From positions 113,576 to 177,575 of the forward strand of contig JBAZUF010000001.1 of the NCBI GenBank assembly GCA_041661505.1: 64,000 nucleotides of DNA. Direction: 5' to 3'. Made by a program: the position numbers and the translations under genes. Each line of letters begins with the position of its first letter. Within the stretch, counting starts at the first letter, position 1. The notes beneath the pieces are model-generated. The model searched no databases, was not told the DNA's origin, and saw nothing but the letters and a program-made list of their open reading frames with translations. The stretch is from Patescibacteria group bacterium (GTDB lineage: Bacteria > Patescibacteriota > Patescibacteriia > Patescibacteriales > JBAZCA01). This document shows, one piece after another, positions 3,777-41,809 of this stretch.

Positions 3777-5042
3777 TTACTTCGGCGTTGAAGTCGAATT
3801 ATTGCCGGGCATAAGCATAACCGGCGTCGAGGTGGCTTCGGCACTACTGGCATCCACCGGTTTTTTATAAACTTTGTAATACCATTCCAAAAATTCTTTG
3901 GCGATCGGGACGGCGATAACATCTCCGCCGCCTCCCTCTTCAACCAGAATCGTAATTACCAATTCCGGATTGTCGTAAGGCGCGAAACCGGTAAACCAGG
4001 CATGGGTCGGCTTGGTAGTAGAGAATTGAGCGGTTCCGGTTTTGCCGGCCACCGGGACCGGAACCGATTGCAGGCTCCGGGCCGATCCGCCCGTAACCGT
4101 TTGGCGCATGCCTTCGCGGACAATCTCAATATTTTTTTTCGAAACCAATTTTTCACTGACTAAATTCCGGACGGCGTCGCTTACGACATTCCCCACAATT
4201 TTATCTTCAGAAGTTAAAACCTGGCGGATAAGATGCGGGCGGTAAAGCTTTCCGCCGTTCGCGAAAACGGAAGTATATTGGGCAACCTGCAAAGGCGTAA
4301 CTAGCAAATCGCCCTGGCCGATGGAAACATGATAAGTGTCGCCAATATACCATTTTTCCCCTTTAGCTTTTTCCTTCCATTCTTTTGTCGGCAAGAAGCC
4401 GGCCGATTCGCCGGCTAAATCAATTCCGGTTTGCGCGTCCAAACCGAAAATTTTCCCGTATTTGTCGATCCGCTCCACTCCGAGCCCCTGGAAATTTTCA
4501 TAACCGCCGCCGATATAGTAAAAAAACGTGTTCACTGATTCGGCTAAAGCTTTTTTTACGCTGGTTACGCCATGTCCGCCCGCTTTCCAGTCGGGAAAGA
4601 ACCATTGGTTTATCCGGATGCCGCCATTTGATAAGACGGTGGTATTTTCATCAACCACCCCTTCTTCTAAAGCCGCCGCCGCGATCACCGGCTTGATAAC
4701 CGAGCCGGAAGGAAACTCGCCGGAAACAGCGCGGTTAAATAGCGGCCGGTTCGGATCTTCTAATAATTTTTTATACTCATCCGCCGAAATGCCCCGCGCG
4801 AAAAGGTTGTCGTCATAAGCCGGCAGGCTGATCATAGTTAGAACTTCGCCGTTTCGCGGATCCATGATAATGGCCGAGGCTTTTTTCAAATTAGTTTTCG
4901 CGAGCCGGTTAGCGATTATTTCTTCCAGCTTCTTTTGCATATTCAAATCGATGGCCAGGACCAAATTGTTCCCGTCCTCCCCTTTTTCTTCTCCCAGAAT
5001 CTTTTTTTCCTTTCCCAGGGCGTCGACTTCAATTTGTTTTTT
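3777..5042 (-). CDS. mrdA: penicillin-binding protein 2, transpeptidase half (C-terminal segment of a frame-interrupted mrdA)
   Basis: Class-B PBP active-site motifs in order: SxxK (PSGSVIKP), SxN (AESVNTF), KTG (AGKTGTAQ). Colinear with the upstream segment after a -1 frame change at 5036-5042. Confidence 0.85.
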   Translation of the reverse strand, partial: KKQIEVDALGKEKKILGEEKGEDGNNLVLAIDLNMQKKLEEIIANRLAKTNLKKASAIIMDPRNGEVLTMISLPAYDDNLFARGISADEYKKLLEDPNRPLFNRAVSGEFPSGSVIKPVIAAAALEEGVVDENTTVLSNGGIRINQWFFPDWKAGGHGVTSVKKALAESVNTFFYYIGGGYENFQGLGVERIDKYGKIFGLDAQTGIDLAGESAGFLPTKEWKEKAKGEKWYIGDTYHVSIGQGDLLVTPLQVAQYTSVFANGGKLYRPHLIRQVLTSEDKIVGNVVSDAVRNLVSEKLVSKKNIEIVREGMRQTVTGGSARSLQSVPVPVAGKTGTAQFSTTKPTHAWFTGFAPYDNPELVITILVEEGGGGDVIAVPIAKEFLEWYYKVYKKPVDASSAEATSTPVMLMPGNNSTSTPK

Positions 5043-5830
5043 CCGTCTTTTCCCCGAAGCTGGTTTTCCCAAAAATACTCCACTCCGTTTTTTCCGACGT
5101 AATCAATCGGCAGGTATTCAGGGCCGTATTTTTTCAATTCATCCGGGCTGATTTTTCCCGTATAGCCCAAAACATGAGACATTGAGTTGCAGTAAATATT
5201 ATATTCGCGCCGGGTTTTCGATGAAAGGAAGACGCCTTTTTCTCCGGAGGCCAAAAGGTCAAGCTTGATAGCCATTTCATAAGGGATGTTGTCGGCTATG
5301 AACAAGGGCTGGTAAGCCTCGTACGACCGGCGCTTAACTGAATTTATTATGTTTAAGACATCTTCTTTTTTTACGTTTAAAATTTCCCCGATCCGGGCGG
5401 CTAACCCTTCTGTTTCTTTGGCGTCAGCCGGTAAATCCGAAGGGATGACATAAAGCATGAAATTCGCCACATTCCGGACTAAAGGCAGGTAATTCCGGTC
5501 ATAAACAACTCCCCGGTTAGCAGGCAGGCGTTCAATCCGGACGCGGTTTCCCTCCGCCATCTGATAATAATAGCTTCCCTTGGCAATCTGCAGCCAGCCG
5601 GCCCGCCCCAGGATAATGGCGAGCGCCAAACCTAAAAATATATTAAAAAAACGCAAGCGCTTGAAATCAAAACTGCGGCCCAGGCTCCCTTTGGATTTGT
5701 CTTTGCCGATTAAAAAATCGTCCGACCAGGTCTCGCGGTAGCGGCCGTCCAATTTTTCAAATTTGCCTTCTTGGATTAAAAAAGGCTCATTTGAACGGGA
5801 GTTGAATTTTTTAAAACCGAAGAAATTCAT
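4943..5830 (-). CDS. mrdA: penicillin-binding protein 2, N-terminal membrane anchor and dimerisation half (0-frame segment; stops at 4943)
   Basis: ATG at 5830, 27 nt after the mreD stop. TM anchor FFNIFLGLALAIILG, then PBP-dimer motifs RGVVYDRNYLPLV and HVLGYTG. The listed longer start at 5974 overlaps mreD and is unlikely. Confidence 0.8.
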   Translation of the reverse strand: MNFFGFKKFNSRSNEPFLIQEGKFEKLDGRYRETWSDDFLIGKDKSKGSLGRSFDFKRLRFFNIFLGLALAIILGRAGWLQIAKGSYYYQMAEGNRVRIERLPANRGVVYDRNYLPLVRNVANFMLYVIPSDLPADAKETEGLAARIGEILNVKKEDVLNIINSVKRRSYEAYQPLFIADNIPYEMAIKLDLLASGEKGVFLSSKTRREYNIYCNSMSHVLGYTGKISPDELKKYGPEYLPIDYVGKNGVEYFWENQLRGKDGKNKLKSTPWERKKRFWEKKKGRTGTIWSWPSI

Positions 5831-5856: not shown

Positions 5857-6390
5857 TTATTTCCGCCGGACCAAAAACACCGGCTTGAAGCGATGGCTTA
5901 AATAATTGACGATATAAAAGATAACAGCGGTTAGAATAATATTTAATATTACGATGCTCGCGGCCTCCAGCCAAAAATTTACGCTAAAATCGGCTTTAAT
6001 CCCGGCTCCGCTAAAATAGTTGATTATCAGTTCGATAATTTTTTGCGTAAACAGGTAAGCTAAATTGGCCAGGGCGGTTAGAGCGGCAAAGGAATATAAA
6101 GACCGGTTGGTAAAAAAACTTTTATACAAAAAATTAACGGCTATAAGGGTTAAAAATAACGATCCCAGGTGCAGGCCGAAAGGAAGAAACGAGTAGATGT
6201 CTTCAATTAGCCCGGCGCCTAAAGCAAGATACGCGGCGGCCGGAAAATCGGCTAGCGCCAAGGTGAAAATAAGCGACGCGATTATCAAATTAATTCCGGG
6301 CAAAATTCCGGGCAAACCGCTTACTAAGCCAAACTGGGCGGTTAACAGCCCGAGAACCAAAAAAAAATTTATCGCGATTTTTTTTAGCAT
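5857..6390 (-). CDS. mreD: rod shape-determining protein MreD (polytopic membrane protein)
   Basis: 177-aa, about 5 hydrophobic helices, located between mreC and mrdA as in canonical mreBCD-mrdA operons. Assignment rests mostly on position and topology. Confidence 0.6.
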   Translation of the reverse strand: MLKKIAINFFLVLGLLTAQFGLVSGLPGILPGINLIIASLIFTLALADFPAAAYLALGAGLIEDIYSFLPFGLHLGSLFLTLIAVNFLYKSFFTNRSLYSFAALTALANLAYLFTQKIIELIINYFSGAGIKADFSVNFWLEAASIVILNIILTAVIFYIVNYLSHRFKPVFLVRRK

Positions 6391-6406: not shown

Positions 6407-7216
6407 CTAGGGCAAAAGCACCGATACTATCACCAGCTCATTTAAGTTAATAACCGGCTCAATCACCGCGGTTTGCCAAAGCTCGTTGGATTTTTGCTTG
6501 ACTTCGGAAATCCGGCCGATAACCAGCCCGCGCGGTATCCCTTTTTCCAGGCCCGAGGTTACTATAATATCGCCGGATTTTATGCTTTCAGTCTGGGGGA
6601 TATAATCCATCTTGATGGTAAGGCCCAAATCTCCCTGGGTTATGCCGACGGTTTTATTGGCGTTCTGGATCGCGGCCGCGAATTTACATTGGCCGTTGGT
6701 AGTTAAAACCAGCCGCGAAACGCGGTCTTTCACTTCCGCCACTTTACCGACGATAATTCCCTGCGAATTCATTACCGCCAGGCCGGCAGAGAGGCCGTCC
6801 ACGCTTCCCTTGTTTATCGTTATTCCCTGCCCCAGATCGGAAAGCTCTCCCTGGCCGATTATCGCCGCCATGACGTACTGATATTTATTATTTTCGAAAA
6901 AACTCAAATACTTGCGCAAAGACTCGTTTTCATCCTCCAAAGTCTTCAGTTTCGCGTTGTCGACCATAAGCTGGTTTCTCTCGATTTCCATCTGGCGCAT
7001 AAGCCTTACAAGGTCGCGCTTATCCATCTGCTCGTTATACTGCGTCCGGAGGCTGGTGGAAAAGGAATAAAAGCCGGAGAAAAACGGGTTGAAAATATAA
7101 GTTAAAACCGACTCGGCGGGCGAAGTTATTTTTAAAAAATGCAAAAAAATAAGCAGCCCGATAACTGCTACAAAAACGATTACTTTATTTTTTGCGATTT
7201 TAGTTTTATAGCTCAT
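6407..7216 (-). CDS. mreC: rod shape-determining protein MreC
   Basis: N-terminal TM, coiled-coil (MEIERNQLMVDNAKLKTLEDENESLRKYL), then MreC beta-barrel motifs (INKGSVDGLSAGLAVMNSQGIIVGKV, GDIIVTSGLEKGIPRGLVIGRISEV). ATG 7216 is preferred over 7243, which lies inside a repeat. Confidence 0.88.
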   Translation of the reverse strand: MSYKTKIAKNKVIVFVAVIGLLIFLHFLKITSPAESVLTYIFNPFFSGFYSFSTSLRTQYNEQMDKRDLVRLMRQMEIERNQLMVDNAKLKTLEDENESLRKYLSFFENNKYQYVMAAIIGQGELSDLGQGITINKGSVDGLSAGLAVMNSQGIIVGKVAEVKDRVSRLVLTTNGQCKFAAAIQNANKTVGITQGDLGLTIKMDYIPQTESIKSGDIIVTSGLEKGIPRGLVIGRISEVKQKSNELWQTAVIEPVINLNELVIVSVLLP

Positions 7217-7289: not shown

Positions 7290-8333
7290 TTACATTTCCG
7301 CGGTTCCCGGGGTGGCGAGCTTTAAAAGAAGCGGTTCGTTGGCGAGTAGTATTCCGGTTCCGCGCACCACGCAAGTCAAAGGGTCGTCCGCCACGCGCAC
7401 CGGAATTTTTATCGCCTGGGCGATTTCCTTATCAATCCCGCGAAGCATAGCGCCGCCGCCGGATAACACGATTCCGTGCTCGTAAATATCGGCGACCAGT
7501 TCGGGCGGGGTGGTTTCCAAAGTGATTTTAATATTCTCGATTATCAGGTGGATTGACCGGCCGATAGCTTCCCGAACCTGGGTGTCGTTTATTTCAATCG
7601 AGCGCGGCAGGCCATTCACTAAATCGCGGCCCCGGACGCTCATTTCGATCGGATCCTTTAGGGGCGCGGCTGACCCGACCCGGATTTTAATTTCTTCCGC
7701 CAGCTGTTCGCCGATTAAAATTCCGAATTCTTCCCGGACGTATTGGGTAATATTGTTGTCCAATTCATTGCCGGCCACATGCAGGGTTTTCCAGTTGACG
7801 ACTCCGCCCAAAGATATAACGGCAATTTCGGTTGTCCCTCCGCCGATATCGACGATCATAGTCGCGGTCGCTTCGGTTACCGGCAAGCGGGCGCCGACCG
7901 CGGCGGCCATAGATTCTTCAATCAGATAAACCGTGCGGGCGCCGGCGGATTTGGTCGCGTCTTCTACTGCTTTTTTTTCCACCTCGGTAATATCCAAAGG
8001 GATGCCGATGACTACCTTTGGCCGCGGCATCAGGACGAAACTTTCCTGATGGACTTTATCGATAAAATATTTAAGCATTTTTTCCGCCACTTCAAAATCG
8101 GAAATTACGCCGTCCACCAGAGGCTTTACCGCCGTAATATGGGCCGGGGTTTTTCCAAGCATCTTTTTGGCATCGCTTCCCACGGCTAAAATTTCGTCCG
8201 TCCGCATATTAACGGCGACTACCGAAGGTTCGTTGATGCAGATTCCTTTGTCCGGCGTGTAAACCAGAGTATTGCAGGTGCCTAAATCAATTCCGATATC
8301 CTTGCTGAATTTTCCCAAAAATTTTCCAAACAT
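7290..8333 (-). CDS. mreB: rod shape-determining actin homologue MreB
   Basis: GIDLGTCNTLVY phosphate-1 motif, DIGGGTTEIAV, LSGGGAMLRGID. ATG 8333 (MFGKFLGKFSKDIGIDLGT) is preferred over the listed 8375. Confidence 0.95.
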   Translation of the reverse strand: MFGKFLGKFSKDIGIDLGTCNTLVYTPDKGICINEPSVVAVNMRTDEILAVGSDAKKMLGKTPAHITAVKPLVDGVISDFEVAEKMLKYFIDKVHQESFVLMPRPKVVIGIPLDITEVEKKAVEDATKSAGARTVYLIEESMAAAVGARLPVTEATATMIVDIGGGTTEIAVISLGGVVNWKTLHVAGNELDNNITQYVREEFGILIGEQLAEEIKIRVGSAAPLKDPIEMSVRGRDLVNGLPRSIEINDTQVREAIGRSIHLIIENIKITLETTPPELVADIYEHGIVLSGGGAMLRGIDKEIAQAIKIPVRVADDPLTCVVRGTGILLANEPLLLKLATPGTAEM

Positions 8334-8573: not shown

Positions 8574-8792
8574 TCAGTAAGACTACAAAAGCGCTTGCTG
8601 AAAAGCTTAAAAACATATCTAAAGTTCTTTAAAATTTAGGCGAGTACGCGGGTAGAAATAAGTTGGCCTTAAAGTTAGCAGACCAATTCATTCCTGCCCG
8701 CGTAATTGTGCGTCGGTAGTGCCGGTTCGCATAGCGCGAACTGCCCGATCCGTATGGACGGGATTGCAATAACTTCTAATGGAGGATCCGTG
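8574..8792 (+). promoter_or_regulatory. long (~219 nt) structured 5' leader of the orphan ORF
   Basis: Hairpins readable by eye: 8569-8586; a 9-bp clamp CGCGGGTAG/CTGCCCGCG (8647-8655/8694-8702); GTTCGC/GCGAAC (8725-8741); CCCG-TCC/GGA-CGGG (8744-8762). GGAGG at 8781-8785. Confidence 0.45.
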
Positions 8793-9659
8793 ATGGACCA
8801 ACAAAAGAAGGAAGGCAATGTACTTTCCGCATTGTCTTTTTCCGAGTTTTTAGGAAAGGTTTTCGCACTTGAGCAAGGCGAAGCCAACCAGTGCTTCACC
8901 GACCTTTTTAAGGTCATGAAGCGATTGGACGCTCACGAAACCAAGTCCGGAATGCCCGCTCGCTTTGAGAAGGCGCTCCGGAAAACCAAAAACGAAAGAA
9001 GAGAAGAAAAGGAAAATAAAATGAAGACTTTAGGTAAAGACATAATTTTAGGCAAGGGTCAGATATTTGCATTTACCCAGCCAGCTTGCTCGTCAAACAT
9101 CGCTCACAAGACCGATATTGTTTGGCGGCTTGAGGGCGAAACCGTCTCGGGAAAAGAGCAGGCCCAAGGCTGGCTCCTCTACGAGGGGCAAAGCGCGGAA
9201 ATGCTCACCAGCGTGAACACTCACGCAGGTGAATATGTTCAAGGCACCGCCACGGTAACAAACCGAGGAGGGAAGCCCGAAATTAGGAAAAATGCCGGTT
9301 CCATAATGGTTGTATGGGATCCGGAGGGGGAGATGGAATTCCCCTATCCCTTCTCTGCCGTTCTCTACGACCCTGTTACTCACGGGGAACCAAAATACGA
9401 GGACTTCTGTCCTCGCCACTGGTGGACAGAGTGGGAGGGGTTTTCAATTGCGGTCGCGGAATACATAAAGGCGACCGGGCGCGTAGACACCGGGATCAAC
9501 GCCATAAAGAAATACTCCTTTATTGGCGAATACCTGGCGGTCATCGCCGCCGAACTCCATCGGGAGGGTGTGGATGTTCGCCCCCTTCTGAAAGGGGTGG
9601 GACTAGAAAAGATTTTTTCAAAGGCACTGTGCTTGGGTCGAAGAGTCCCGGCAGAATAG
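8793..9659 (+). CDS. orphan hypothetical protein (288 aa)
   Basis: ATG 8793 lies 7 nt after GGAGG; the listed 8706 start lies inside leader hairpins. A 288-codon open frame is very unlikely by chance. Helical N-terminus, KE-rich linker, W/Y-rich C-terminal domain (PRHWWTEWEGF). No family recognised. Confidence 0.7.
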   Translation: MDQQKKEGNVLSALSFSEFLGKVFALEQGEANQCFTDLFKVMKRLDAHETKSGMPARFEKALRKTKNERREEKENKMKTLGKDIILGKGQIFAFTQPACSSNIAHKTDIVWRLEGETVSGKEQAQGWLLYEGQSAEMLTSVNTHAGEYVQGTATVTNRGGKPEIRKNAGSIMVVWDPEGEMEFPYPFSAVLYDPVTHGEPKYEDFCPRHWWTEWEGFSIAVAEYIKATGRVDTGINAIKKYSFIGEYLAVIAAELHREGVDVRPLLKGVGLEKIFSKALCLGRRVPAE

Positions 9660-22242: not shown

Positions 22243-25200
22243 TTAGTCAGTAGGCACGATATTTCCGGCGCCGGTCGACCAGAGCCAGTAGCCTTTTCCG
22301 CCTTGCATGTAAGAGCCGGTTTTATCAGCGTTCGATTGGTCAAAGACGATATATCCGGAAGGCAAAGTCGAAAGATAGGTAGTCGTAGTCTTGTAAGCCG
22401 AAATTGATTTAAGGCCGATCAAATTCCAGCCGGAGATTACCGGATAGCTGGTAGGCGGATTTGGCGCTTCCGGGGCGATAGTTCCGGCAATTGTTAAAGT
22501 ATCGCTGCCATTCATATTCACCCAATAGCCGTTGCCATCTTTCATAATTCCTAAATCGCCTACTCCCGGCAATTCAGGATGGCCTTCCTGGACCGTGAAG
22601 GTCTGCCAGTCGCCATTATAATAGTATTGGACGGTATCAAGATTTGTTTTTATTCCGGCAATTACGTCTTCAATCGCCGTACTCCCCGGAATCACCGGCA
22701 AAGACATTAAATTCCAGCCCGAGCTCAAAGAAATAGTGCAGGTATAAACTCCGGCTACCGGACCGGTACAAATCGGATCAGGGTAAGCGACCGGTACGGC
22801 GATATTAAAGGCTGTGTTGCTCATATCAGAACCGGTATTACCCGCGGCGTCAGTAGCAGTAGCCCGGATAAAGACATTCGTAGAATTGGCACCGGCCGGA
22901 ATAGTCCATGGGTGACCTCCGCTATTTGAAGTATTTGTTACGATGTTATGCCAAGTAGCGCTGCCGTCAGTTGAATAGTCCAGGGTAACCAGGATGTTCG
23001 CTGACGAGGTAACATTGTCAGTCGCGGTCCAAGTAAGCGTATGGGTTGACCCTTCATCCCAAGTCTCTCCGCCGTTCGGGCTGTTGACCGCGATAACCGG
23101 ATCCGTCGTATCAACAACGGTCGAATGAGTAATCGTAAAGGTACTGCTTAAGTCAAAATCCGCGTTAGTCGCCAAATCGGTCACCGTAACTCTTATCTGG
23201 CAATCAGAGCTATTAATAGCCGGCACGGTCCACGAATAAGCGCCGTCATTTTCCGTCGCCCCGACGACCGAAGACCAAGTCAATCCCCCGTCCGAAGTAA
23301 ATTCGATTTTAATCGGCGTTCCGGCCGGCGGCCCGATATTCAAGTCCGTCGCCGTCCAGTTTATCGTATAAATATTTCCGCCAGTCAAAGTCTGCCCCGT
23401 AAACATGCTCGACAAGCTCATGACCGGATTGGTGTTATCCGTATTCAGCTGGCCGACGAGTTGGTAGGTAAAATTACTATAGCTATCTCTAGCTCTTACG
23501 CAGAGATAATCGGTATGGTCGCCGGAGATTGTGAAATCAGCCCCGCTCACATATGTGTTTAGTGGTGCGCTGAAGTCAGTACTATTACAAACTGCGTCGG
23601 AGCTAAAGCTATAATTATTGTAAGTAGCGCTCAAATGAGGATCGCTGGAAGTGATATTAATAACATCATCTTTTACCGGACCTGCTTCAACCCCGTTATT
23701 AATAGTAATCGACGGTGGAGTTGTATCTTTAGTTCGAGTGGCAGTAGCCGGAAGGCCTGAATTACCGGCGGCGTCAGTCATAACAACCGTAAGCGTAACT
23801 ACTCCGTCAGACAGGGTCGAAGTGTTAATCGAGCCGACGTGGTAAGTGGTTGAGGTGGCGATTCCGCTTCCTTCAACTGCCGCGGTCATCGGATCGGTAT
23901 CGTCCAGGCTATAAGTAAAGTTCGCGCCAACTTCGGCTCCGGTAAAGTTGAAATTAGCCGAAGTTTTTAGGCTGCTCGGGTATAAAGTTACCGCGTAGCC
24001 GGCTGGCGCGGCCGTATCTACTGTCCAAGTATGAGTAGTCGCGCTCAATTCAGCTTGCCAGTTGCCATATTTATCCCGGCCGATTACGTAAACTGTATGC
24101 GAACCGTCTGACAAGCCGGCCAAGGTAATTAGATCCGCAACTGCAGTTTCAGCCCCGAATGCTCCGCCGTCCAGTTTATATTTATAATAAACAATATTCG
24201 CGTCGCCTACGGTTATACTGGCCGAGGTTAAACTGGTCGGATCGGCTGGTGTCCCGGAAAGCGTTGCAGTCGGAAGCACTAAACTTATGTCAGTCCGTTC
24301 CGCATCAAAATACCATGGAGTAAAAGCGACATTGTCACTAACGGCGTTGCCGGTTCCATGAGGATTTGAAGTCAGATTATATGGGCCGCTCGGATCTCCC
24401 CACCAGTTTTGCGCGGCGTTCAAGGTGCCGGTTCCGGCGTTTAATATGCCGGTAGTGTTTCCGGTGAATGAGTTGTTGCTGACGCTAAACTCGGCTCCGG
24501 AAATATCGCTTCCAGCGCGCACGGATATTCCTAGATATGAATTGCTGAATGTGTTTCCCGTAACAGTTATCGGACCGGCATAAACTAAGCCTAAATCGTG
24601 ATAGGTGCGGATACCCGCGCCCCAGGTTGCGCTAGTACCCGGATCAGGGTTGGTAATGTTGTTAAATGTATTATTAGAGATATTAAGATTCCCCGAAGTA
24701 TTTGCAATCAGCATACCGTAATACTGGACTCCGTTAAAAGTGTTTCCGGTTATGTTGCCGGTAACGCTGCTTAGATTCAGTGCGCCGGAACTTGTTATGC
24801 CGGTCCACGTATTATTAGTAATGGTGATAGTATTGGCGCTCGCCGAGTAATGTCCTCCAACCTGAACTGTATCCGCGTTGGGCGTGTCAATGCTCGTAAA
24901 CAAGTTATCGTCTAGAGTGAGGATAGGATCCTCGAAGTACAAGCCATCGGTCATAGCTCCGCTGAATATATTTTTACGGAGCGAGATAGTTGCCCCGGAA
25001 GCATCGCTTCGCATTTCTGCCCCGGTGGTCGCGAACGTAAGTCCTTCAAAAGTTACAACCGCGGTCCCTGAAGTTATATTAAAAGTTGCAGGTCCTCCGC
25101 CAGCAGAACCTTCAATAATTGCCTCTGCAACACGCGACCCGCCGTTAGGGCTTATGCTGACGTTCGGGCCGGCTATAGTAAGAGATTTATTTATTGTTAT

Positions 25201-28200
25201 CTCGCTGGCACCCTGGTCGTACGTCCCGGCAGCAATATCAATTGTATCTCCGGCAGTTGATTTAGTAACAGCTTCCTGAATGGTGTCAAAATCAGGATTA
25301 TTAAGAGCCGTATCATCAACGGTCAAAGTATCGTCTGTATCTAATACAAACGAAGCGGATGTTTCGGAAACGGTGTTTCCGGCCGCGTCAGTAACAGTAA
25401 CCGTTAGGGTGTGGCGCCCATCAGAGGCTCCTGAAATAGTTGTACTTATCGGCACGCCGGTGGTACAAGGAATTGTTCCTTCAAGCACTGGGCTGTCAAC
25501 TGTATAGCTACAAATTAAAGCCGTGCCAGGCCCCGGGTCGTTAGGCGTAAAAGCCACTGCGATATTATCCTTATATACTGTATCAAGCGCGGGAGCGGTG
25601 AAGCCAGTGATAGTCGGGGTGCCCGTATCAACAGTCATAGTATAAGTGTCCAATGCAACATTATCAACCTCATTTCCAGCCCGGTCAATCATATGCACCT
25701 CCATTGTGTAAACACCATCAGGAGCAGTGCCACCTGCACTTAATGACCCATCCCAAGCTTCATTCAAAATAGCGGTTCCATCATCAGTTGCAGGGATATA
25801 ACTTTTCTTAGTTACACCTCCCTGCACCACCTGCAGTGAAACCCAATTGTCGATAATTTCACTGGCATTAATTACGATGGATACGCTTGCGGGATTGGTT
25901 GGGTCAAAAGTAACGTTAGCTCCGCTTCCATTTAGAGTGTAGCTTGTGATTGTCGGTGCAACTGTATCGGTATATGCAGCTTTAGTAGCTTCATTGGTAG
26001 GATTAATATTTGTAGCAGTATTGCCAACTGCGTCTGTTCCGGTAATGGCAATATTTTCTAAAACTTCGCCGACAGCGGCAACATCACTGGCGATCACTCG
26101 GTCATATTTATAATCATTTCCCGCGACTAAAGTAGCATCGACGCTGCTTACGTCATTAGCTGTACCTTCCGCGTCAATCGAAATTCTTGGCGCTTCGCTT
26201 AAAGCTTCGTTAGCGGTAATCTTTATATAATAGGTCCCGACTTTTAATCTCTTATTGTCAGTTAATTCAGTTGTAAGGCCGGCATCTGAATAATATTGAA
26301 TAGCGAAGGTTGGCCTAGTAGTGTCTTGGGTATAAGAAACTGAATTTGATGGAGCGCTTTCTAAGTCTGCGGCGTCAGTAGAGGTTACAGTTACAACCTT
26401 AGCGGCGTCATAATCTAATTCGCTAACTATTCCGGCGGTTTCCAACTGTAAATTACTAAAGCTGAAATTGCCTCCGGTTGCGGTAGTAGTAACTCCGCTT
26501 GGTACTATTCCAATATATATCTCCACTATTGAATCAGCTTCTGCTGTCCCGGAAATCACTTGAGTCGGCTTTGTGGTTTCGTTAATAACAACTGTTGCCG
26601 CGGCCGGGTTCGTAATTACAGGGGCTTCCGGCGGAGTAACATCTATAAAATCAACTGAAGCATCTATAATGATCAGGCCAGCAGAAGTGGCACTAAGCGT
26701 AGCAGTCCCGGCCGTTCGGTCGGCTCCCGAGGTTAGGGTTGCAACAACAATTCCGTCAGCGTCAGTGGTTTGCATTCCAGCCGGATCAAGAGTTCCCTTG
26801 GTTCTTGTTAAGGTAATGGAAACTCCGGCTTGAGGCCTATTGTTGTCATACTGATCTTTTAGTTGGCCGGTAATTCCAGCACTATCAACACCATCGGCGT
26901 TAACAGAAGCTTTGCTGCTGGTTACGACCACTTTATTTGCCACGTCCGAGTTAACAGTAATTGCTGCGGTATCGTCAGCTGCCAATCCTGCGGCGCCATG
27001 CAAAACCGTACTCACTGCGTTAAACAAAGTGCTTTCCGCGCTTCCCGTTCCGTCAGTAACTGTGATTGGATTATATTCAGGGTGTGCGCCGCTTGGAGAA
27101 TCGCCACCGCCAGAGCTAGCAGAAACAGTAACGGTTCCGGAAGCAGGATTGCCAAATTGGTCAACTGCTCCGGCGACGCTAACCGTAAATGCGGTTCCAG
27201 CCGTAACTGGAGTCGGGGCGGTTAGCGTGAAAGCGGTGATTACACCGGCTTTAAGCGGACCGATGTCGCCGCTTGTAGCTGAAACGGTTCCAGCGGTCGC
27301 AGTGATTTTAAAGATATCCACCTGGCTGTAAGCAACATTAGTAAAGGTCGCTAAACCGTTTGTAGTTGCCAAACTAAGAGCTCCCCGCAAATCGCCCGCA
27401 CCACTAGCCTTAGTAAGAAGAACATCAGTTCCGTTGGCCACGTTATTTTCATAAGCGTCTTTGACCAGCACTATTGGTTGGGTGGAGATTGGATTGTCTA
27501 CGGTGTCGGTTATGACCGCCGCTGGCGCCGTAGAGAAAGTTACAACTGATGGTACATTTGGAGCTACAGCGATTGAATTGGAAGTAACAGGAGTGAGGCT
27601 GTCCGAGCTAAAATTCAAAGCTATAGTTACCGCTTCGGTATAAACTATGTTAGTAAAGGTAGCGATGCCTCCAGAAACAGTCGCTGTCAAAGTTCCTCCG
27701 AGGTCCCTACTACCGCTGGCGCTGTTCCTCGTTGCGGTTATTACTGATAAATCATCTTCACTGATCAAGTTGCCAAATTGGTCAACAATTTTTACAACTG
27801 GTTGAGTGGCAAAAGCTTCGCCCGCCGTTGCAGTTGCCGAAGGTTGTGTTGCCATTTCTAATCGGCTGGCAACATCGTGATTAAATGTAACTTCCTGGGT
27901 CAGCACAATTAAAGTACCATCAGCGGTCGCAGTAATAGTTTTTTCTTCAGCTTTAGTGGAAGAGAAGGTAACCGTTGCTACTCCTAAAGCATTTGTTGTC
28001 GCTGGTACAGGATTAAGTTCATTTTCTGTTCCGGTTGAGTCGACTGTCACGCTAGAGTTAGGTATTACGTTTCCGGCCGCGTCTTTTACCGTTACCGTAA
28101 TGGTAATAATATTATCTCCGCCACTTACAGTTTCTCTGTCCTTGTCTACCGCAACAATAGAATTATCGGCGCTAACCGGACCGGGTACAACTGTTAAAGT

Positions 28201-29070
28201 GCCAGTATCGTCCGTAAAAGAGCCATCAACCGCATGGATTACTCCGCTTCCCACTAAAACCCCGGTAAAAGTCGCGCTTTTGCTATCTCCGGCCGGTACT
28301 AAATTAGCATCGACAACGTCAGGGGTCTTATCGATTAATGACCAAGTAGCCGCGACATTATTTACGAAATTATTGAATTGATCCCTCTCAATGGTATATG
28401 CAGTTAAGGTATTTCCGGAAATCACATCCTGCGGCGAAATTACAGTTCCGCTCCCATTAGCCGCGGTTTCAATCTTAACTTGTGTTGGCGCTCCGGCAAT
28501 AGTAGATAAAGTGCCAAAACTGGTACCTCCAACCCCATCTGTAACCCCTGCAATAGCGGCACCATCTACACTTGAATGGGTTATGTTGCCGGTAGAGGGA
28601 GCAATACCCGTCGGCCGGACCTTCATACTACTGATAATAAAAGCGAGGCCGCTATTTGCCGTGGAAGCTCCTGTGATCGAAAAAGTAAAAGAATTCGGGC
28701 CGGGCGTTATCACTTGGCTCTCCGGTTCAATATCGCCGACAGTCCTTACCACGGTTACAGTTGATCCCGTATTAAATTCCCATCCATCCGGAAGATTAAA
28801 AGTATGCGTTCCAACCTCTATGCTTCCGGGCGCGGTTTCATTAATAGTCGGTCCGCTTAGAGTTCTCCAGGTTCCCGATCCGCCAGGAGCCGAAGTTGTA
28901 TCAATAGACACATTAGTTCCATTGCTGGCAGGGGCAATGGTCGCGTCTCCAACGGCAAAAACATAATTAACCGCGAAGATTGTTCCAAAAATTAAAAACG
29001 CGCCGAGTAAGCCGAAGACCGGCCATTTCACAGCGCGTTTCTTTAGAGATGTTTTAATAAACTTGCTCAT
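22243..29070 (-). CDS. giant (2275 aa) cell-surface protein: signal-anchor, many bacterial Ig-like (Big/invasin-type) domains, a right-handed parallel beta-helix region, C-terminal beta-rich domains
   Basis: N-terminal anchor VFGLLGAFLIFGTIFAV. Repeated Big-like units (e.g. ITITVTVKDAAGNVIPNSSVTVDSTG...ATVTFSS). PbH1-type repeats (ITITNNTWTGI, NITGNTFNGV, NISNNTFNNI, ITVTGNTFSNS, FSVSNNSFTGN). Confidence 0.85.
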   Translation of the reverse strand: MSKFIKTSLKKRAVKWPVFGLLGAFLIFGTIFAVNYVFAVGDATIAPASNGTNVSIDTTSAPGGSGTWRTLSGPTINETAPGSIEVGTHTFNLPDGWEFNTGSTVTVVRTVGDIEPESQVITPGPNSFTFSITGASTANSGLAFIISSMKVRPTGIAPSTGNITHSSVDGAAIAGVTDGVGGTSFGTLSTIAGAPTQVKIETAANGSGTVISPQDVISGNTLTAYTIERDQFNNFVNNVAATWSLIDKTPDVVDANLVPAGDSKSATFTGVLVGSGVIHAVDGSFTDDTGTLTVVPGPVSADNSIVAVDKDRETVSGGDNIITITVTVKDAAGNVIPNSSVTVDSTGTENELNPVPATTNALGVATVTFSSTKAEEKTITATADGTLIVLTQEVTFNHDVASRLEMATQPSATATAGEAFATQPVVKIVDQFGNLISEDDLSVITATRNSASGSRDLGGTLTATVSGGIATFTNIVYTEAVTIALNFSSDSLTPVTSNSIAVAPNVPSVVTFSTAPAAVITDTVDNPISTQPIVLVKDAYENNVANGTDVLLTKASGAGDLRGALSLATTNGLATFTNVAYSQVDIFKITATAGTVSATSGDIGPLKAGVITAFTLTAPTPVTAGTAFTVSVAGAVDQFGNPASGTVTVSASSGGGDSPSGAHPEYNPITVTDGTGSAESTLFNAVSTVLHGAAGLAADDTAAITVNSDVANKVVVTSSKASVNADGVDSAGITGQLKDQYDNNRPQAGVSITLTRTKGTLDPAGMQTTDADGIVVATLTSGADRTAGTATLSATSAGLIIIDASVDFIDVTPPEAPVITNPAAATVVINETTKPTQVISGTAEADSIVEIYIGIVPSGVTTTATGGNFSFSNLQLETAGIVSELDYDAAKVVTVTSTDAADLESAPSNSVSYTQDTTRPTFAIQYYSDAGLTTELTDNKRLKVGTYYIKITANEALSEAPRISIDAEGTANDVSSVDATLVAGNDYKYDRVIASDVAAVGEVLENIAITGTDAVGNTATNINPTNEATKAAYTDTVAPTITSYTLNGSGANVTFDPTNPASVSIVINASEIIDNWVSLQVVQGGVTKKSYIPATDDGTAILNEAWDGSLSAGGTAPDGVYTMEVHMIDRAGNEVDNVALDTYTMTVDTGTPTITGFTAPALDTVYKDNIAVAFTPNDPGPGTALICSYTVDSPVLEGTIPCTTGVPISTTISGASDGRHTLTVTVTDAAGNTVSETSASFVLDTDDTLTVDDTALNNPDFDTIQEAVTKSTAGDTIDIAAGTYDQGASEITINKSLTIAGPNVSISPNGGSRVAEAIIEGSAGGGPATFNITSGTAVVTFEGLTFATTGAEMRSDASGATISLRKNIFSGAMTDGLYFEDPILTLDDNLFTSIDTPNADTVQVGGHYSASANTITITNNTWTGITSSGALNLSSVTGNITGNTFNGVQYYGMLIANTSGNLNISNNTFNNITNPDPGTSATWGAGIRTYHDLGLVYAGPITVTGNTFSNSYLGISVRAGSDISGAEFSVSNNSFTGNTTGILNAGTGTLNAAQNWWGDPSGPYNLTSNPHGTGNAVSDNVAFTPWYFDAERTDISLVLPTATLSGTPADPTSLTSASITVGDANIVYYKYKLDGGAFGAETAVADLITLAGLSDGSHTVYVIGRDKYGNWQAELSATTHTWTVDTAAPAGYAVTLYPSSLKTSANFNFTGAEVGANFTYSLDDTDPMTAAVEGSGIATSTTYHVGSINTSTLSDGVVTLTVVMTDAAGNSGLPATATRTKDTTPPSITINNGVEAGPVKDDVINITSSDPHLSATYNNYSFSSDAVCNSTDFSAPLNTYVSGADFTISGDHTDYLCVRARDSYSNFTYQLVGQLNTDNTNPVMSLSSMFTGQTLTGGNIYTINWTATDLNIGPPAGTPIKIEFTSDGGLTWSSVVGATENDGAYSWTVPAINSSDCQIRVTVTDLATNADFDLSSTFTITHSTVVDTTDPVIAVNSPNGGETWDEGSTHTLTWTATDNVTSSANILVTLDYSTDGSATWHNIVTNTSNSGGHPWTIPAGANSTNVFIRATATDAAGNTGSDMSNTAFNIAVPVAYPDPICTGPVAGVYTCTISLSSGWNLMSLPVIPGSTAIEDVIAGIKTNLDTVQYYYNGDWQTFTVQEGHPELPGVGDLGIMKDGNGYWVNMNGSDTLTIAGTIAPEAPNPPTSYPVISGWNLIGLKSISAYKTTTTYLSTLPSGYIVFDQSNADKTGSYMQGGKGYWLWSTGAGNIVPTD

Positions 29071-29806: not shown

Positions 29807-32800
29807 TTATAAATTATTTTTTAAATAGTTAAAGTCATCTTTAATTATATCATAAGCTTTTTGATTAATTAAATGCCTAGTCAAATATTTCCAAAGCGAT
29901 TTTTCCATCCGGTCGAAAACTACTTTCAACTTTTTATCATTTTCCTTGTCCAACCTTTCCAGCTCTTCATTGTATCTTTGGAACATTTTAACCTTAGTTT
30001 TAGCTGGGATTGAATTGTTGGCTTCTATTTTTCCTCTGGTCCTAATAATTATATTTTTTGCTTCATTTAACAGCTTCAATCTCCATTTAATTTCTTCAAT
30101 CTCGGTTATCAGTAATTTACTGGTTATCCGGTCGTATATCCACCTAAGATTATATAACCTTTGGATATCTGAAATTACGCTGTCCGGAGTAGCGGTTATA
30201 TTAAATTTGACTGTTGAAGTAGCCATATTTCCCGCTTTATCAAGAGCCCTAAATTCTAATAAATGTTCTCCGGTTTTTAGGAAAAATAAGTCAGCTTTTT
30301 CATTATCTACGCTTTGGCCGTCTAGGAGAGTTGAAGTTGCGGAAATACCTGAAAAATCGTCGGTGGCGCTATATTCAATTTGCATAGTTGCATTATGCAA
30401 ATAATTACTTCCTTCAGCTGGAGAAGTAATATTAATAGTTGGCGCTACTAAATCAATGGGCTCGGGGTCGCTTAACGGATTATCCGACGTACTGGAATAG
30501 TTAATTCTAAATTCCTGAACCTGATTTTCGGCAATATTGCCTTGGTAGTTTTTCTCGATTTCCGATTCGTTATCGGTATTAATCAAACTGGTACCTAATT
30601 GATATTGTCCTCCTCGGCTAACTCCTTGAATTTCTATTTTGTATTCGCCGTCCATTGGCTCTAAAATTGTCGCAAATTCTTCTTCTGCCCCAAAACCTGA
30701 ATAAAAAGCGCCGTCAATCTCGTTTAAATCTGTATTTGAAAAAAAATCTTTGCCCAGTCTCTTACCGTCCGGCGCAATAATAGTAAAATCAACTGGAGAA
30801 TAAACTCTTATGAAAAAAATTCTTTTGATAGCTGACCACAAGCTATCGATATACTTGTCCGGCGTTTTTCCCGTTAGTTCTTTAATAACTTCTTTTTGCG
30901 CGGCGGTTACCATCTGGCGATGATCATATCCGGAAAGCTCAATAGTCTTAACACCGGCTAAGCTGTTAGAGCTTTCGTTGGGGACCGTACGGTCGCCGTC
31001 ACCTAGAATCAAACAATCAGCATTGCCATCATCTAGATTCTCCGGATAGCCGTCCATCCATTTGCTGTCATATATATCCGGATCACTAATTACCCTTATT
31101 TTCGAGACCGTTGTGTTAGCTTTTAGCGAATGGCTGAATATGTTAATAATATTAGCCCTTCCTTTAAGCGCGGAAATCCCGGCTTGCGTATTAAGGTTTT
31201 CTAAAAATTCATTCCTCGGGTATTGTACCGGGTAAATTCTGTCTATCCAACTATCGCCAAGTTTATTTTGCAGATAATTATAAGTCGGTAAGAGCTGCTC
31301 CACGCTGGGCGCTTGTTCATGGATATACTTAATAATATTTAAGTATTTATGCTCAGCCGCTTCAAGTCCTAGCACACTATTTAATAGCCAATTATTGGCC
31401 AAAAAATATGAACCTTCCCAAGCTAAATAATCTTCCGGCGCGCCTTTATGCGGGGTTCCTAAGAATATTAATTGATCAACGTCATTTTGATATTCACTGC
31501 TTTGAACATAATACCGGGCCACTAATCCGCCCATGCTATGGGCTACAATATCCACTTTTGTTTTACCGGTTATTTCTTTTATCTCTTGAATTTTATCTTT
31601 TAGCTGGCCGGCGGTCGTCACATTATTTTGCCGCCAATTATAAGGAAAAACGAATAAATTCTTATCCAATTCGTATCCGCTCTGGATTAAAGCCTCTATT
31701 AAATTATCATAGGTATGCAGGATGGGATCAATCAGCTTTATATTCAAGCTTTGCCAACTCCCCAAAATCCCCGGCACTATAATCACTGGATCTTTTTCTT
31801 TTACTAATGGCCAGGCAAAGGGTTGGCCGCTTTCGTAAATTTGCTTTACTTCTTCGGGAGATAAAATTGAAGAAAGGATGAATAAATCGTCAACGTCTCC
31901 CATGAAATTGCAGAAACGTCCGCAAGAATTATCTTCCCGGTAGCCGACTTTAACTTGCCCGAAAGAAGGCGGATTACCCGGAATAAATTCGCTCCCCTCT
32001 TCTTCGCCGTCTATATAGAGTTTTAGCGTGTGATTATGGGCGCGCGGATCAAAGGTGAAGGAGATAAAATGCCAGTTATTGTCGTTAATGGATTGGCTGG
32101 AGGTTATATTATATGTCCGGTAAAAGCAGGCCGGGCCGTTAGTTGTCGCGGTACAGCCATCGGAAAAATTGACTGTCAAAAACGCTTGGCCGAGTTTTTC
32201 GGAAAGGACAATATTGTTTTCTTTATTATTTCCGCCTAAGACTAAAAAACGGGCTCCCGGATCGCTTTGGGCGCCGGTCTTAATCCAGGCGCCGGCCGAA
32301 ATCCCATTTTCAAAATTTACCGGCGGGTCAACGTTCCGGCTGAATAAATCTTCAACCTTATTAAAATTTATTGCCTTATCAAACCGCCCGGAAACCCGTC
32401 TTGGCGACGGCTCTCCGCCGCCCCAAGGGTTAGCGCCCCAGCTTAAGTTATAGCCGTTTCCCGAACTGTCGGAGGCCGTATCTCCGGTATCATCAAAATG
32501 ATAAATAGCTTTTACCGCGATTGGCGCTAATGCGGTTTCAGTTATTTCAGACTTATAGGGCTTAGCGGACTGAAAAATTTCCAGGATTTTACTGTCATCC
32601 AGGCTTTCCGACCGGATCCAAACGTCATCAATTACTCCTTTAAAATTATTTAAGGCGTAAGGCGCGTAATAATCTTCGCGCCGGCCGATTACGATATTTT
32701 CGGCCGCTGGAATAGTTTGGGCAAAACTTAATTCCCCGTCTTTTATTCCGTCAATATAGAGCTTAGCCTGGCCGGACGCAGTCAGGCTGACAGCGATAAA

Positions 32801-33352
32801 ATGCCAGTTTGAATCGTTAACCAGAGCCTCTGAAACCAATTCCTCTTGCCACTCGTTTTCTTTTTTAAATTTTATGACGGCATGGCCATCCTTTATTGCC
32901 AGCATAAAATGATTAGCCGGCGAGCCGCTTGAATCAAAAGTATTTCCCAGCCAAAAAAACCGGGTATACTGTGGCGTGTCAACATCCGTTTTTATCCAAA
33001 TTCCGACTGTTAATCCGTCGGGCCATGAAACAGCAGGAGAAAATTGCCGGGAATACAATTCTTCGGTTTGGCTAAAGTTTATTCCTAAATCCCATTGGCC
33101 TCGAACTCTTTCCGGCGCGATTTTTCCCCCGCCCCAGGGGTTATGGCCCCACTCTAAATTATTTCCGTTCGGCCCGGAGTCGTAGGCAACGGTTCCGCTA
33201 TTTTCATCGAAATGCCAAACACCAAAATCAGCCGCGTCAGTTGGGTCGGCGGCTTTAACCGCGGGCGCGCTCCCCAAAGCCCCAAAAACAAAAATACCCG
33301 CCAAAAAAATGACCGGCAATATGCAAATAGTCCTCGCGAATTTAATTTTCAT
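29807..33352 (-). CDS. secreted multidomain protein: 2x LamG/concanavalin-A-like, alpha/beta-hydrolase lipase (LCAT/PGAP1-like), Ig-like domain, helical tail
   Basis: ATG 33352 with GGAGG 5 nt upstream (the listed 33364 is a TTG). Signal ILPVIFLAGIFVFGALGSAPAVKA. Duplicated HFDENSG..GNNLEWGHNPWGGG and HFDDTGD..GYNLSWGANPWGGG. Lipase motifs PGILGSW and VAHSMGGLVARYY (GxSxG). Confidence 0.8.
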   Translation of the reverse strand: MKIKFARTICILPVIFLAGIFVFGALGSAPAVKAADPTDAADFGVWHFDENSGTVAYDSGPNGNNLEWGHNPWGGGKIAPERVRGQWDLGINFSQTEELYSRQFSPAVSWPDGLTVGIWIKTDVDTPQYTRFFWLGNTFDSSGSPANHFMLAIKDGHAVIKFKKENEWQEELVSEALVNDSNWHFIAVSLTASGQAKLYIDGIKDGELSFAQTIPAAENIVIGRREDYYAPYALNNFKGVIDDVWIRSESLDDSKILEIFQSAKPYKSEITETALAPIAVKAIYHFDDTGDTASDSSGNGYNLSWGANPWGGGEPSPRRVSGRFDKAINFNKVEDLFSRNVDPPVNFENGISAGAWIKTGAQSDPGARFLVLGGNNKENNIVLSEKLGQAFLTVNFSDGCTATTNGPACFYRTYNITSSQSINDNNWHFISFTFDPRAHNHTLKLYIDGEEEGSEFIPGNPPSFGQVKVGYREDNSCGRFCNFMGDVDDLFILSSILSPEEVKQIYESGQPFAWPLVKEKDPVIIVPGILGSWQSLNIKLIDPILHTYDNLIEALIQSGYELDKNLFVFPYNWRQNNVTTAGQLKDKIQEIKEITGKTKVDIVAHSMGGLVARYYVQSSEYQNDVDQLIFLGTPHKGAPEDYLAWEGSYFLANNWLLNSVLGLEAAEHKYLNIIKYIHEQAPSVEQLLPTYNYLQNKLGDSWIDRIYPVQYPRNEFLENLNTQAGISALKGRANIINIFSHSLKANTTVSKIRVISDPDIYDSKWMDGYPENLDDGNADCLILGDGDRTVPNESSNSLAGVKTIELSGYDHRQMVTAAQKEVIKELTGKTPDKYIDSLWSAIKRIFFIRVYSPVDFTIIAPDGKRLGKDFFSNTDLNEIDGAFYSGFGAEEEFATILEPMDGEYKIEIQGVSRGGQYQLGTSLINTDNESEIEKNYQGNIAENQVQEFRINYSSTSDNPLSDPEPIDLVAPTINITSPAEGSNYLHNATMQIEYSATDDFSGISATSTLLDGQSVDNEKADLFFLKTGEHLLEFRALDKAGNMATSTVKFNITATPDSVISDIQRLYNLRWIYDRITSKLLITEIEEIKWRLKLLNEAKNIIIRTRGKIEANNSIPAKTKVKMFQRYNEELERLDKENDKKLKVVFDRMEKSLWKYLTRHLINQKAYDIIKDDFNYLKNNL

Positions 33353-33427
33353 ATAACCCTCCAATTATATGAATTAAGCTATTCTATTATATTAGCACTT
33401 ATTTATTAGCTCAACAATACAAATACT

Positions 33428-40219: not shown

Positions 40220-41809
40220 CTAAATCAAAGACCTTCCGGTCATCTCTTTGGGCTTAGCCAAGCCCATTATTTTTATTATGGTTGGGGCGACATCGGACAA
40301 AATTCCCTGCGGCTTCATTAAGGTCAAGTCGCCGCCTATCGTATCCTGGCCGCCGATAGTTTTCCCTTCAAATTCCTTTCCTACTAAAATAAAAGGGACC
40401 GGATTGGTTGAATGCTCTTTTTCCATCGTTCCGGTTTGCATGTTAAACATCGATTCGGCATTGCCGTGATCGGCGGTAATTACCATGACTCCCCCGCTTT
40501 TCAAAACCGCCCGGGTAAGGGATTTTAGGCACTTATCAACGGCCAAGACGGCTTTTTCCGCCGCTTTCAGGTTGCCGGTGTGGCCGACCATATCGGCATT
40601 GGCGTAATTTATCAGAATAAAGTCATAAGCGCCGCCCTCAATAGCTTCTTCAACTTTTTTGGTTAACGCAAAAGCCGACATTTCCGGCTTCAGATCATAA
40701 GAGTCGATCCGCGGCGAAGGGACTAATACATGATCCTCACCCTCTCCCTTTTCCTCGCGGCCGCCGTTAAAAAAATAAGTGACGTGGGCGTATTTTTCCG
40801 TCTCGGCGATCCGCAGCTGTTTTAAGCCCGCCTTGGAAATCACCTCGCCCAAAGTGTTCTTTACCGGCTCTTCGCTAAAAGCCACGCCGGCCGGCAGTTC
40901 CTTTTCGTATTCGGTAAAGCCGGCGAAATACAAATCATTTATCGCTGGCCGGCTGAATTTATTGAAAGCGGGCAAAGTAAGGGCTTTGGTAATTTCCCGG
41001 GCCCGATCCGGGCGGAAATTGAAAAATATGACCGCGTCATGGTCTTCAATTTTTCCTTCCGGCTTTCCTTCGGCATCGGTAATTACCGTCGGGACGAATT
41101 CCTCGTCGTAAATTTTTTTATCATAGCTTTCGGCAATGGCTTTAACCGGATCGGCGGCGGTTTTTCCTTTCCCTAAAGCCATAGCCCGGTAGGCTTTTTC
41201 GACCCGGTCCCAATGGTTGTCGCGGTCCATGGCGTAAAACCGGCCGGAAAGCGAAGCGATTTTTCCCCGGCCGTATTCGGCAATGGTTTTTTGCAGTTCC
41301 TCTATAAAAGCCAGGCCCGAATTAAAAGCCGTATCGCGCCCGTCCAAAAAGGCGTGGATATAAACCCGGTCGATTTTTTTTTCTTTGGCTAAAGCCAGGA
41401 GAGCGGTTAAGTGGTCGATTGAGGCATGGACTCCGCCGTTTGACAAAAGCCCCATGAGATGGAGTTTGGAATTATTTTTTTTCGCGTGTTCAATTGCTTC
41501 GTTCAATGCTTTATTTTCGAAAAAACTATTGTTGTTGATGGCTTTGTTAATCCGCGGCAAGTCCTGATAGACAACTCTCCCCAGGCCTAAATTAAGATGC
41601 CCGACTTCCGAATTTCCCGCTTCGCCCCAAGGCAACCCGACCGCCTCGCCCGACGCCATTAAAGTCGCGGAAGGATAGTGGGCGATAAGCTCGTTAAAAT
41701 TTTCAGTTTTTGCCTGGCTGATGGCGTTGCCTGAATATGGCTGGCTTACTCCCCAGCCGTCCAAAACAACAAGCACTACCGGCTTTGGCCGGCTATTTTG
41801 TTTGGCCAT
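40220..41809 (-). CDS. gpmI: 2,3-bisphosphoglycerate-independent phosphoglycerate mutase, copy 1
   Basis: VLDGWG, GNSEVGHLNLGLGR, ETEKYAHVTYFFNGG, ITADHGNAE. Confidence 0.95.
   Translation of the reverse strand: MAKQNSRPKPVVLVVLDGWGVSQPYSGNAISQAKTENFNELIAHYPSATLMASGEAVGLPWGEAGNSEVGHLNLGLGRVVYQDLPRINKAINNNSFFENKALNEAIEHAKKNNSKLHLMGLLSNGGVHASIDHLTALLALAKEKKIDRVYIHAFLDGRDTAFNSGLAFIEELQKTIAEYGRGKIASLSGRFYAMDRDNHWDRVEKAYRAMALGKGKTAADPVKAIAESYDKKIYDEEFVPTVITDAEGKPEGKIEDHDAVIFFNFRPDRAREITKALTLPAFNKFSRPAINDLYFAGFTEYEKELPAGVAFSEEPVKNTLGEVISKAGLKQLRIAETEKYAHVTYFFNGGREEKGEGEDHVLVPSPRIDSYDLKPEMSAFALTKKVEEAIEGGAYDFILINYANADMVGHTGNLKAAEKAVLAVDKCLKSLTRAVLKSGGVMVITADHGNAESMFNMQTGTMEKEHSTNPVPFILVGKEFEGKTIGGQDTIGGDLTLMKPQGILSDVAPTIIKIMGLAKPKEMTGRSLI

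Follow-up and report, generated by a model that had tools for sequence, protein, structure and literature searches.

Class B PBP2/MrdA proteins of solved structure (7kis, 6tii, 6g9p and 5lp4) are full-length chains that share one architecture, in which a membrane anchor is followed by a pedestal and a transpeptidase domain. A gene of this kind that appears in two reading frames at a run of A residues calls for comparison with bacterial genes in which ribosomes change frame at such runs. The insA-insB' pair of IS1 uses the heptamer A_AAA_AAC and has no recognised downstream stimulator; conservation in IS1 extends to the heptamer as well as to the arrangement of two ORFs, and the fusion is the functional transposase. 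We take IS1 to be the insertion sequence (IS) cluster for which frameshifting on A_AAA_AAC has been proven. In dnaX of E. coli, an essential chromosomal gene, the slippery run of Lys codons is A_AAA_AAG; it lies downstream of a G-rich stretch with a Shine-Dalgarno-like element and upstream of a strong hairpin, and the arrangement is conserved. A different type of frame break is known from draft genomes and metagenome-assembled genomes (MAGs), where a single-base change in an A-run leaves two adjacent ORFs that are colinear with one orthologue, while other assemblies of the same strain keep the in-frame length. Such loci appear in annotations as 'frameshifted' pseudogenes or as a pair of neighbouring CDSs, and in noisy long-read assemblies the breaks are frequent.

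Here we analysed a split mrdA gene in a stretch of 64,000 nucleotides from a Patescibacteria MAG, referred to as the window. This copy differs from the class B PBP2/MrdA proteins named above solely by a one-base frame break. It shares the heptamer with IS1, but neither its split nor its heptamer is conserved even within the strain. Like dnaX, it has a Lys-codon slippery run in an essential chromosomal gene with a G-rich stretch upstream; in contrast to dnaX, the site ends in AAC, has no hairpin and shows no conservation. With the homopolymer indels of draft genomes and MAGs it has in common the single-base change in an A-run, the two adjacent ORFs colinear with one orthologue and the in-frame length in other assemblies of the same strain. 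Whereas such breaks are frequent in noisy long-read assemblies, the present one is isolated, with 0 of 113 other long runs differing. The features of the locus are as follows.

3777..5035, minus strand: 3' portion of PBP2, read in the -1 frame; linker plus transpeptidase domain, the latter with the motifs S-V-I-K, S-V-N and K-T-G; stop codon at 3779-3777
4943..5035, minus strand: out-of-frame tail of the 0 frame, KLKSTPWERKKRFWEKKKGRTGTIWSWPSI, 30 unrelated codons ending in TGA at 4945-4943
5036..5042, minus strand: A6C run, which frame 0 reads as A_AAA_AAC; one A is missing here; sibling assemblies have A7, GGA AAA AAA CAA, encoding G-K-K-Q
5036..5830, minus strand: 5' part of PBP2 (mrdA) in frame 0, with the N-terminal membrane anchor and the PBP_dimer domain (pedestal); a separate 295-aa CDS in the public record
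5857..6390, minus strand: membrane protein of 177 aa that occupies the mreD position directly 5' of PBP2; an exact match to it led to the sibling assemblies
6407..7216, minus strand: mreC, 269 aa, PF04085; coordinates mapped via the sibling contig
7290..8333, minus strand: mreB, 347 aa, PF06723; coordinates mapped via the sibling contig

In the sense direction, the minus strand reads CTT CGG GGA AAA GAC GG[A AAA AAC] AAA TTG, with six A residues at 5042-5037 and the C at 5036. The 0-frame ORF begins with the ATG at 5830, continues through ...LRGKDGKNKLKSTPWERKK... and stops at 4945-4943. From 5072 onwards the -1 frame meets no stop codon until 3779-3777, and its translation is ...KKQIEVDALGKEKKILGEEKGEDGNNLVLAIDL.... 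Addition of one A restores a single ORF of 684 aa. The first-pass annotation had placed the break on A_AAA_AAC, had given these frames and the 0-frame stop, and had pointed out that A7 would restore the frame; we found each of these as described. The tail KLKSTPWERKKRFWEKKKGRTGTIWSWPSI of the 0 frame has no counterpart in any homologue. Another heptamer, A_AAA_AAG (GAA AAA AAG), follows about 30 nt downstream of the break, at 5007-5001 of the minus strand. Its register is that of the -1 (transpeptidase) frame, its codons specify the conserved E-K-K within GKEKKI, and it looks incidental.

The repaired 684-aa protein contains a PBP_dimer domain (PF03717, residues 102-275, E = 8e-35) and a Transpeptidase domain (PF00905, residues 319-649, E = 1.5e-63), and it is colinear across the junction with the MrdA structures 7kis (E = 6e-84), 6tii and 6g9p. 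The identification of the gene as mrdA, proposed from the letters alone, is thereby borne out. The catalytic residues S377/K380 (SxxK), S432/N434 (SxN) and K597-T598-G599 (KTG) are invariant in an alignment of 22 sequences. All of the catalytic motifs are encoded 3' of the break, and the membrane anchor and the pedestal 5' of it. Thus, the repaired chain has the N-terminal anchor, the pedestal and the transpeptidase domain that define MrdA, and in the window as written this chain is interrupted. The gene neighbourhood is that of the elongasome, since the same strand encodes MreB, MreC and the protein in the mreD position directly upstream. Overall, this is an ordinary class B MrdA gene with a single ORF, in an mreB-mreC-mreD-mrdA cluster of a Patescibacteria (CPR) bacterium. 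We also considered a functional PBP2 made of two polypeptides and rejected it, since the downstream part has neither anchor nor signal and all relatives are single-chain proteins.

A homologue search in a collection of 5.8 billion proteins returned 4,185 matches. Each of the best 120 of these has both domains in one protein of 648-687 aa, and where the source is named it is a Patescibacteria or Falkowbacteria MAG. The best match in this search was 78% identical, and the identical 684-aa protein (P0121/MFA6389616.1) was missed although it is part of the collection; a missing match in the search is therefore no evidence of absence. Similarly, the contig index lacks the 295-aa and 387-aa split products, though both exist in NCBI and JGI/IMG. 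The consensus at the junction is G-K-K-Q-I/V-E-V-D-A-L-G-K. Among the 22 aligned sequences K265 and Q266 are invariant, and the residue preceding K265 is K in 18. The homology boundaries at this conserved junction place the missing base inside the A-run. The junction codons of four other species are listed below.

P0001, 78% identity to the query: GGC AAG AAG CAG, in frame
P0002, 74% identity to the query: GGA AAA AAA CAG (A7), in frame
P0005, 62% identity to the query: GGT AAA AAG CAA, in frame
P0035, 61% identity to the query: GGC GAA AAA CAG, in frame

In all four the junction is in frame, synonymous positions vary freely, and the slippery motif is not conserved. The orthologues of mrdA are therefore unbroken, and their codons at this point are non-slippery or vary, which is the outcome that the first-pass annotation had itself set against recoding.

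The same strain is present in other public assemblies, which were reached by an exact look-up of the 177-aa neighbour protein; further look-ups tiled the whole window. In BLASTN, contig k141_1664978 of ENA ERZ27249449 (335,486 nt) matches the window over 64,000 bases with 0 mismatches and one gap. This sole gap is the A-run at 5036-5042, where k141_1664978 has A7 and a called 684-aa PBP2. Two Logan assemblies, SRR6484324 (3.9 kb compared) and SRR18595301 (12.3 kb compared), are likewise identical to the window apart from A7. Over 64,000 bases, the difference from a near-identical sequence is thus confined to the length of one run, and for the window's other A/T runs of at least 7 bases, 113 of 113 have the length found in the sibling assembly. 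The deletion is private to one deposited assembly. The junction pattern (A6-A8 allowed) had no match in the genome and metagenome contig collections, nor had a junction-adjacent pattern in the metagenome contigs or a pattern from just outside the window in the genome contigs; the strain is absent from these two collections.

In NCBI the upstream fragment of PBP2 is MFA6170961.1 (295 aa, 'hypothetical protein WC715_00660') and the downstream fragment is MFA6170960.1 (387 aa, starting at the ATG at 4940, 'penicillin-binding transpeptidase domain-containing protein'). Both split CDSs are on a 463,362-nt contig of a MAG named 'Patescibacteria group bacterium', and the intact 684-aa PBP2, MFA6389616.1, comes from a sibling MAG. 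The deletion belongs to the submitted sequence and is no artefact of extracting the window; the loss of a base during preparation of the window was discarded because both split proteins have NCBI records. As a separate observation, one Patescibacteria strain recurs in four separate public datasets with zero substitutions (64 kb in ENA; about 12 and 3-4 kb in Logan). Either one site has been sampled repeatedly, or the population is remarkably clonal and widespread.

The first-pass annotation had regarded it as notable that the heptamer sits in the correct register. A_AAA_AAC at 5042-5036 is indeed in the 0-frame register of a programmed -1 site, but this is uninformative, because it is the inevitable product when GG A AAA AAA C loses an A. 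Such motifs are also common by chance. In the coding sequence of the window, which comprises about 19,400 codons, we counted 264 in-frame X_XXY_YYZ heptamers; 69 of them are A_AAA_AAN, including 9 other A_AAA_AAC within intact genes. Given this abundance and the arithmetic origin of the motif, an in-register A_AAA_AAC is not independent evidence of recoding, and its register is no more than chance gives. We agree with the earlier remark that there is no convincing hairpin downstream: the 81 nt that follow fold with a minimum free energy of -14.2 kcal/mol compared with a shuffle mean of -15.2 (z = +0.40), and 121 of 200 shuffled sequences fold as well. A GGGGA stretch is seen by eye 8 nt upstream of the heptamer, where it encodes a conserved Arg-Gly. 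At the PBP2 break we thus found no stimulator, and neither the two-frame layout nor the heptamer is conserved.

Three explanations had been offered for the break, namely an assembly error, a recent inactivating deletion and programmed -1 frameshifting. Both of the mundane ones stand, whereas programmed frameshifting is unsupported, as the same strain has A7 in three assemblies and the orthologues are uninterrupted. The change from A7 to A6 is a private homopolymer deletion and not a recoding signal. Recoding, either as a -1 ribosomal frameshift on A_AAA_AAC or as transcriptional slippage on A6, would be programmed if it supplied a truncated anchor/pedestal product next to full-length PBP2, or adventitious if it rescued a real indel at a low level. 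Six A residues are short for appreciable transcriptional slippage, which counts against that route. Sharma et al. 2014 (PMC4066793) and Atkins et al. 2016 (PMC5009743) report that in E. coli frameshifting is far less efficient on A_AAA_AAC than on A_AAA_AAG, and that the re-pairing of the A-site tRNA from AAC to AAA is poorly tolerated by bacterial ribosomes. Recoding can nevertheless point to the heptamer in its correct register and to the G-rich GGGGA noted by inspection. Moreover, the former source describes A_AAA_AAC as a proven, low-efficiency shift site in one bacterial IS cluster without a known stimulator (PMC4066793), and low-level compensatory frameshifting over 'savior' indels has been documented elsewhere (PMC5009743). 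Against it stand the automatic origin of that register, the frequency of the motif, the weakness of this heptamer in bacteria, the absence of downstream structure and a two-ORF layout that is not conserved, the same strain having in-frame A7 and the nearest orthologues GGC AAG AAG or GGT AAA AAG. Taken together, we regard recoding in any of these forms as very improbable. Just as improbable is its adventitious variant, in which A6 would be real in the sampled population and the cell viable through low-level -1 frameshifting or mRNA slippage, with trace amounts of full-length PBP2 beside an abundant truncated anchor/pedestal fragment. If this were true, the homopolymer would serve as a 'leaky' switch for an enzyme of the elongasome in a CPR bacterium. 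The junction peptides to look for, if A6 is real, are GKDGKNQIEVDALGK or GKDGKKQIEVDALGK.

The choice then lies between an error and a true allele. The privacy of the deletion, the A7 of the same strain elsewhere and the uninterrupted orthologues are observations; a consensus or assembly error, rather than a true allele, is what we infer as the most likely cause. GGA AAA AAA CAA (G-K-K-Q) lacks one A of its lysine-codon run in this assembly, and the frame is broken as a result. If the A6 was produced at the homopolymer by the consensus or the assembly of the deposited MAG, the organism would make a normal full-length PBP2 of 684 aa by standard translation. A noisy long-read assembly as the source was discarded, as all of the other A/T runs of at least 7 bases match the sibling. 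The same agreement weakens the error reading itself, since the source is not generally homopolymer-noisy, and it argues in favour of the alternative that the deletion is real. The alternative is that replication slippage in A7 removed one base very recently in the population sampled, which would inactivate PBP2; it is possible, though we would expect it less. Homopolymer indels are the commonest spontaneous frameshifts, and one of them is a plausible first difference between genomes that have no SNP in 64 kb. A6 is present in the deposited MAG, and the sibling contig comes from a k141 short-read assembly, a type that normally reports majority-supported paths. The k141_ names are MEGAHIT-style; should the window's MAG likewise have been built from short reads by de Bruijn assembly with good depth, an erroneous consensus at A7 would be unusual, and A6 could then be a true allele in that sample. 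However, A7 is found in three other assemblies of the same strain, and the gene shows strong conservation and is unbroken in all relatives examined. Furthermore, because the anchor lies upstream and the catalytic motifs downstream of the break, the split gene would give no exported transpeptidase, and A6 would be null for a core enzyme of the elongasome. That a null allele should reach consensus frequency while nothing else differs in 64 kb is unlikely a priori. If real, the deletion would mark a pseudogene in the making, or else an allele that is harmful or tolerated under certain conditions, and non-programmed slippage would yield traces of full-length protein at most.

Long ORFs cover about 91% of the window, and a tRNA scan and an Rfam search (gathering score) gave zero matches across its 64 kb. 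Close to the mreB end of the cluster, a 301-aa protein with no Pfam match is encoded at 8754-9659 (plus strand) between secF and mreB, on the opposite strand. In the relative with 78% identity, this spot holds an MlaC-like gene together with a RelB/ParE toxin-antitoxin pair (L001 2571-3146, L002 1351-1926). The secF-mreB interval is a variable spot beside a conserved cluster. Two genes for cofactor-independent phosphoglycerate mutase lie in tandem on the minus strand at 40220-41809 and 41915-43489 (529 and about 510 aa). Both products have the Metalloenzyme and iPGM_N domains, and the genes adjoin those for enolase and phosphoglycerate kinase. They are a full-length tandem pair of paralogues and no split gene. 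A giant protein of 2,275 aa with Big_1, Invasin_D3 and Beta_helix domains is encoded at 22243-29070 on the minus strand, adjoining a gene for a protein of about 1,181 aa (29807-33364, minus strand) with Laminin_G_3 and lipase/alpha-beta-hydrolase domains. These two genes adjoin the segment of lowest GC content (0.394 at 28-32 kb, compared with about 0.46 elsewhere in the window). The two proteins may have a role at the cell surface or in host interaction.

The break in mrdA is a case of the familiar one-base length changes in homopolymers that break genes apart in draft assemblies, and it brings no new biology. In the public annotation of this MAG, the two PBP2 CDSs, one of them named 'hypothetical', are to be read as one gene. 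The locus also carries a caution, as an in-register slippery heptamer at a frame break mimics programmed recoding: any loss of one base from a Lys-Lys A-run that starts at the third position of a codon gives exactly such a pattern. If A6 is real, the locus would be a small example of the nascent loss of a rod-shape transpeptidase in a population of Patescibacteria, with no new mechanism.
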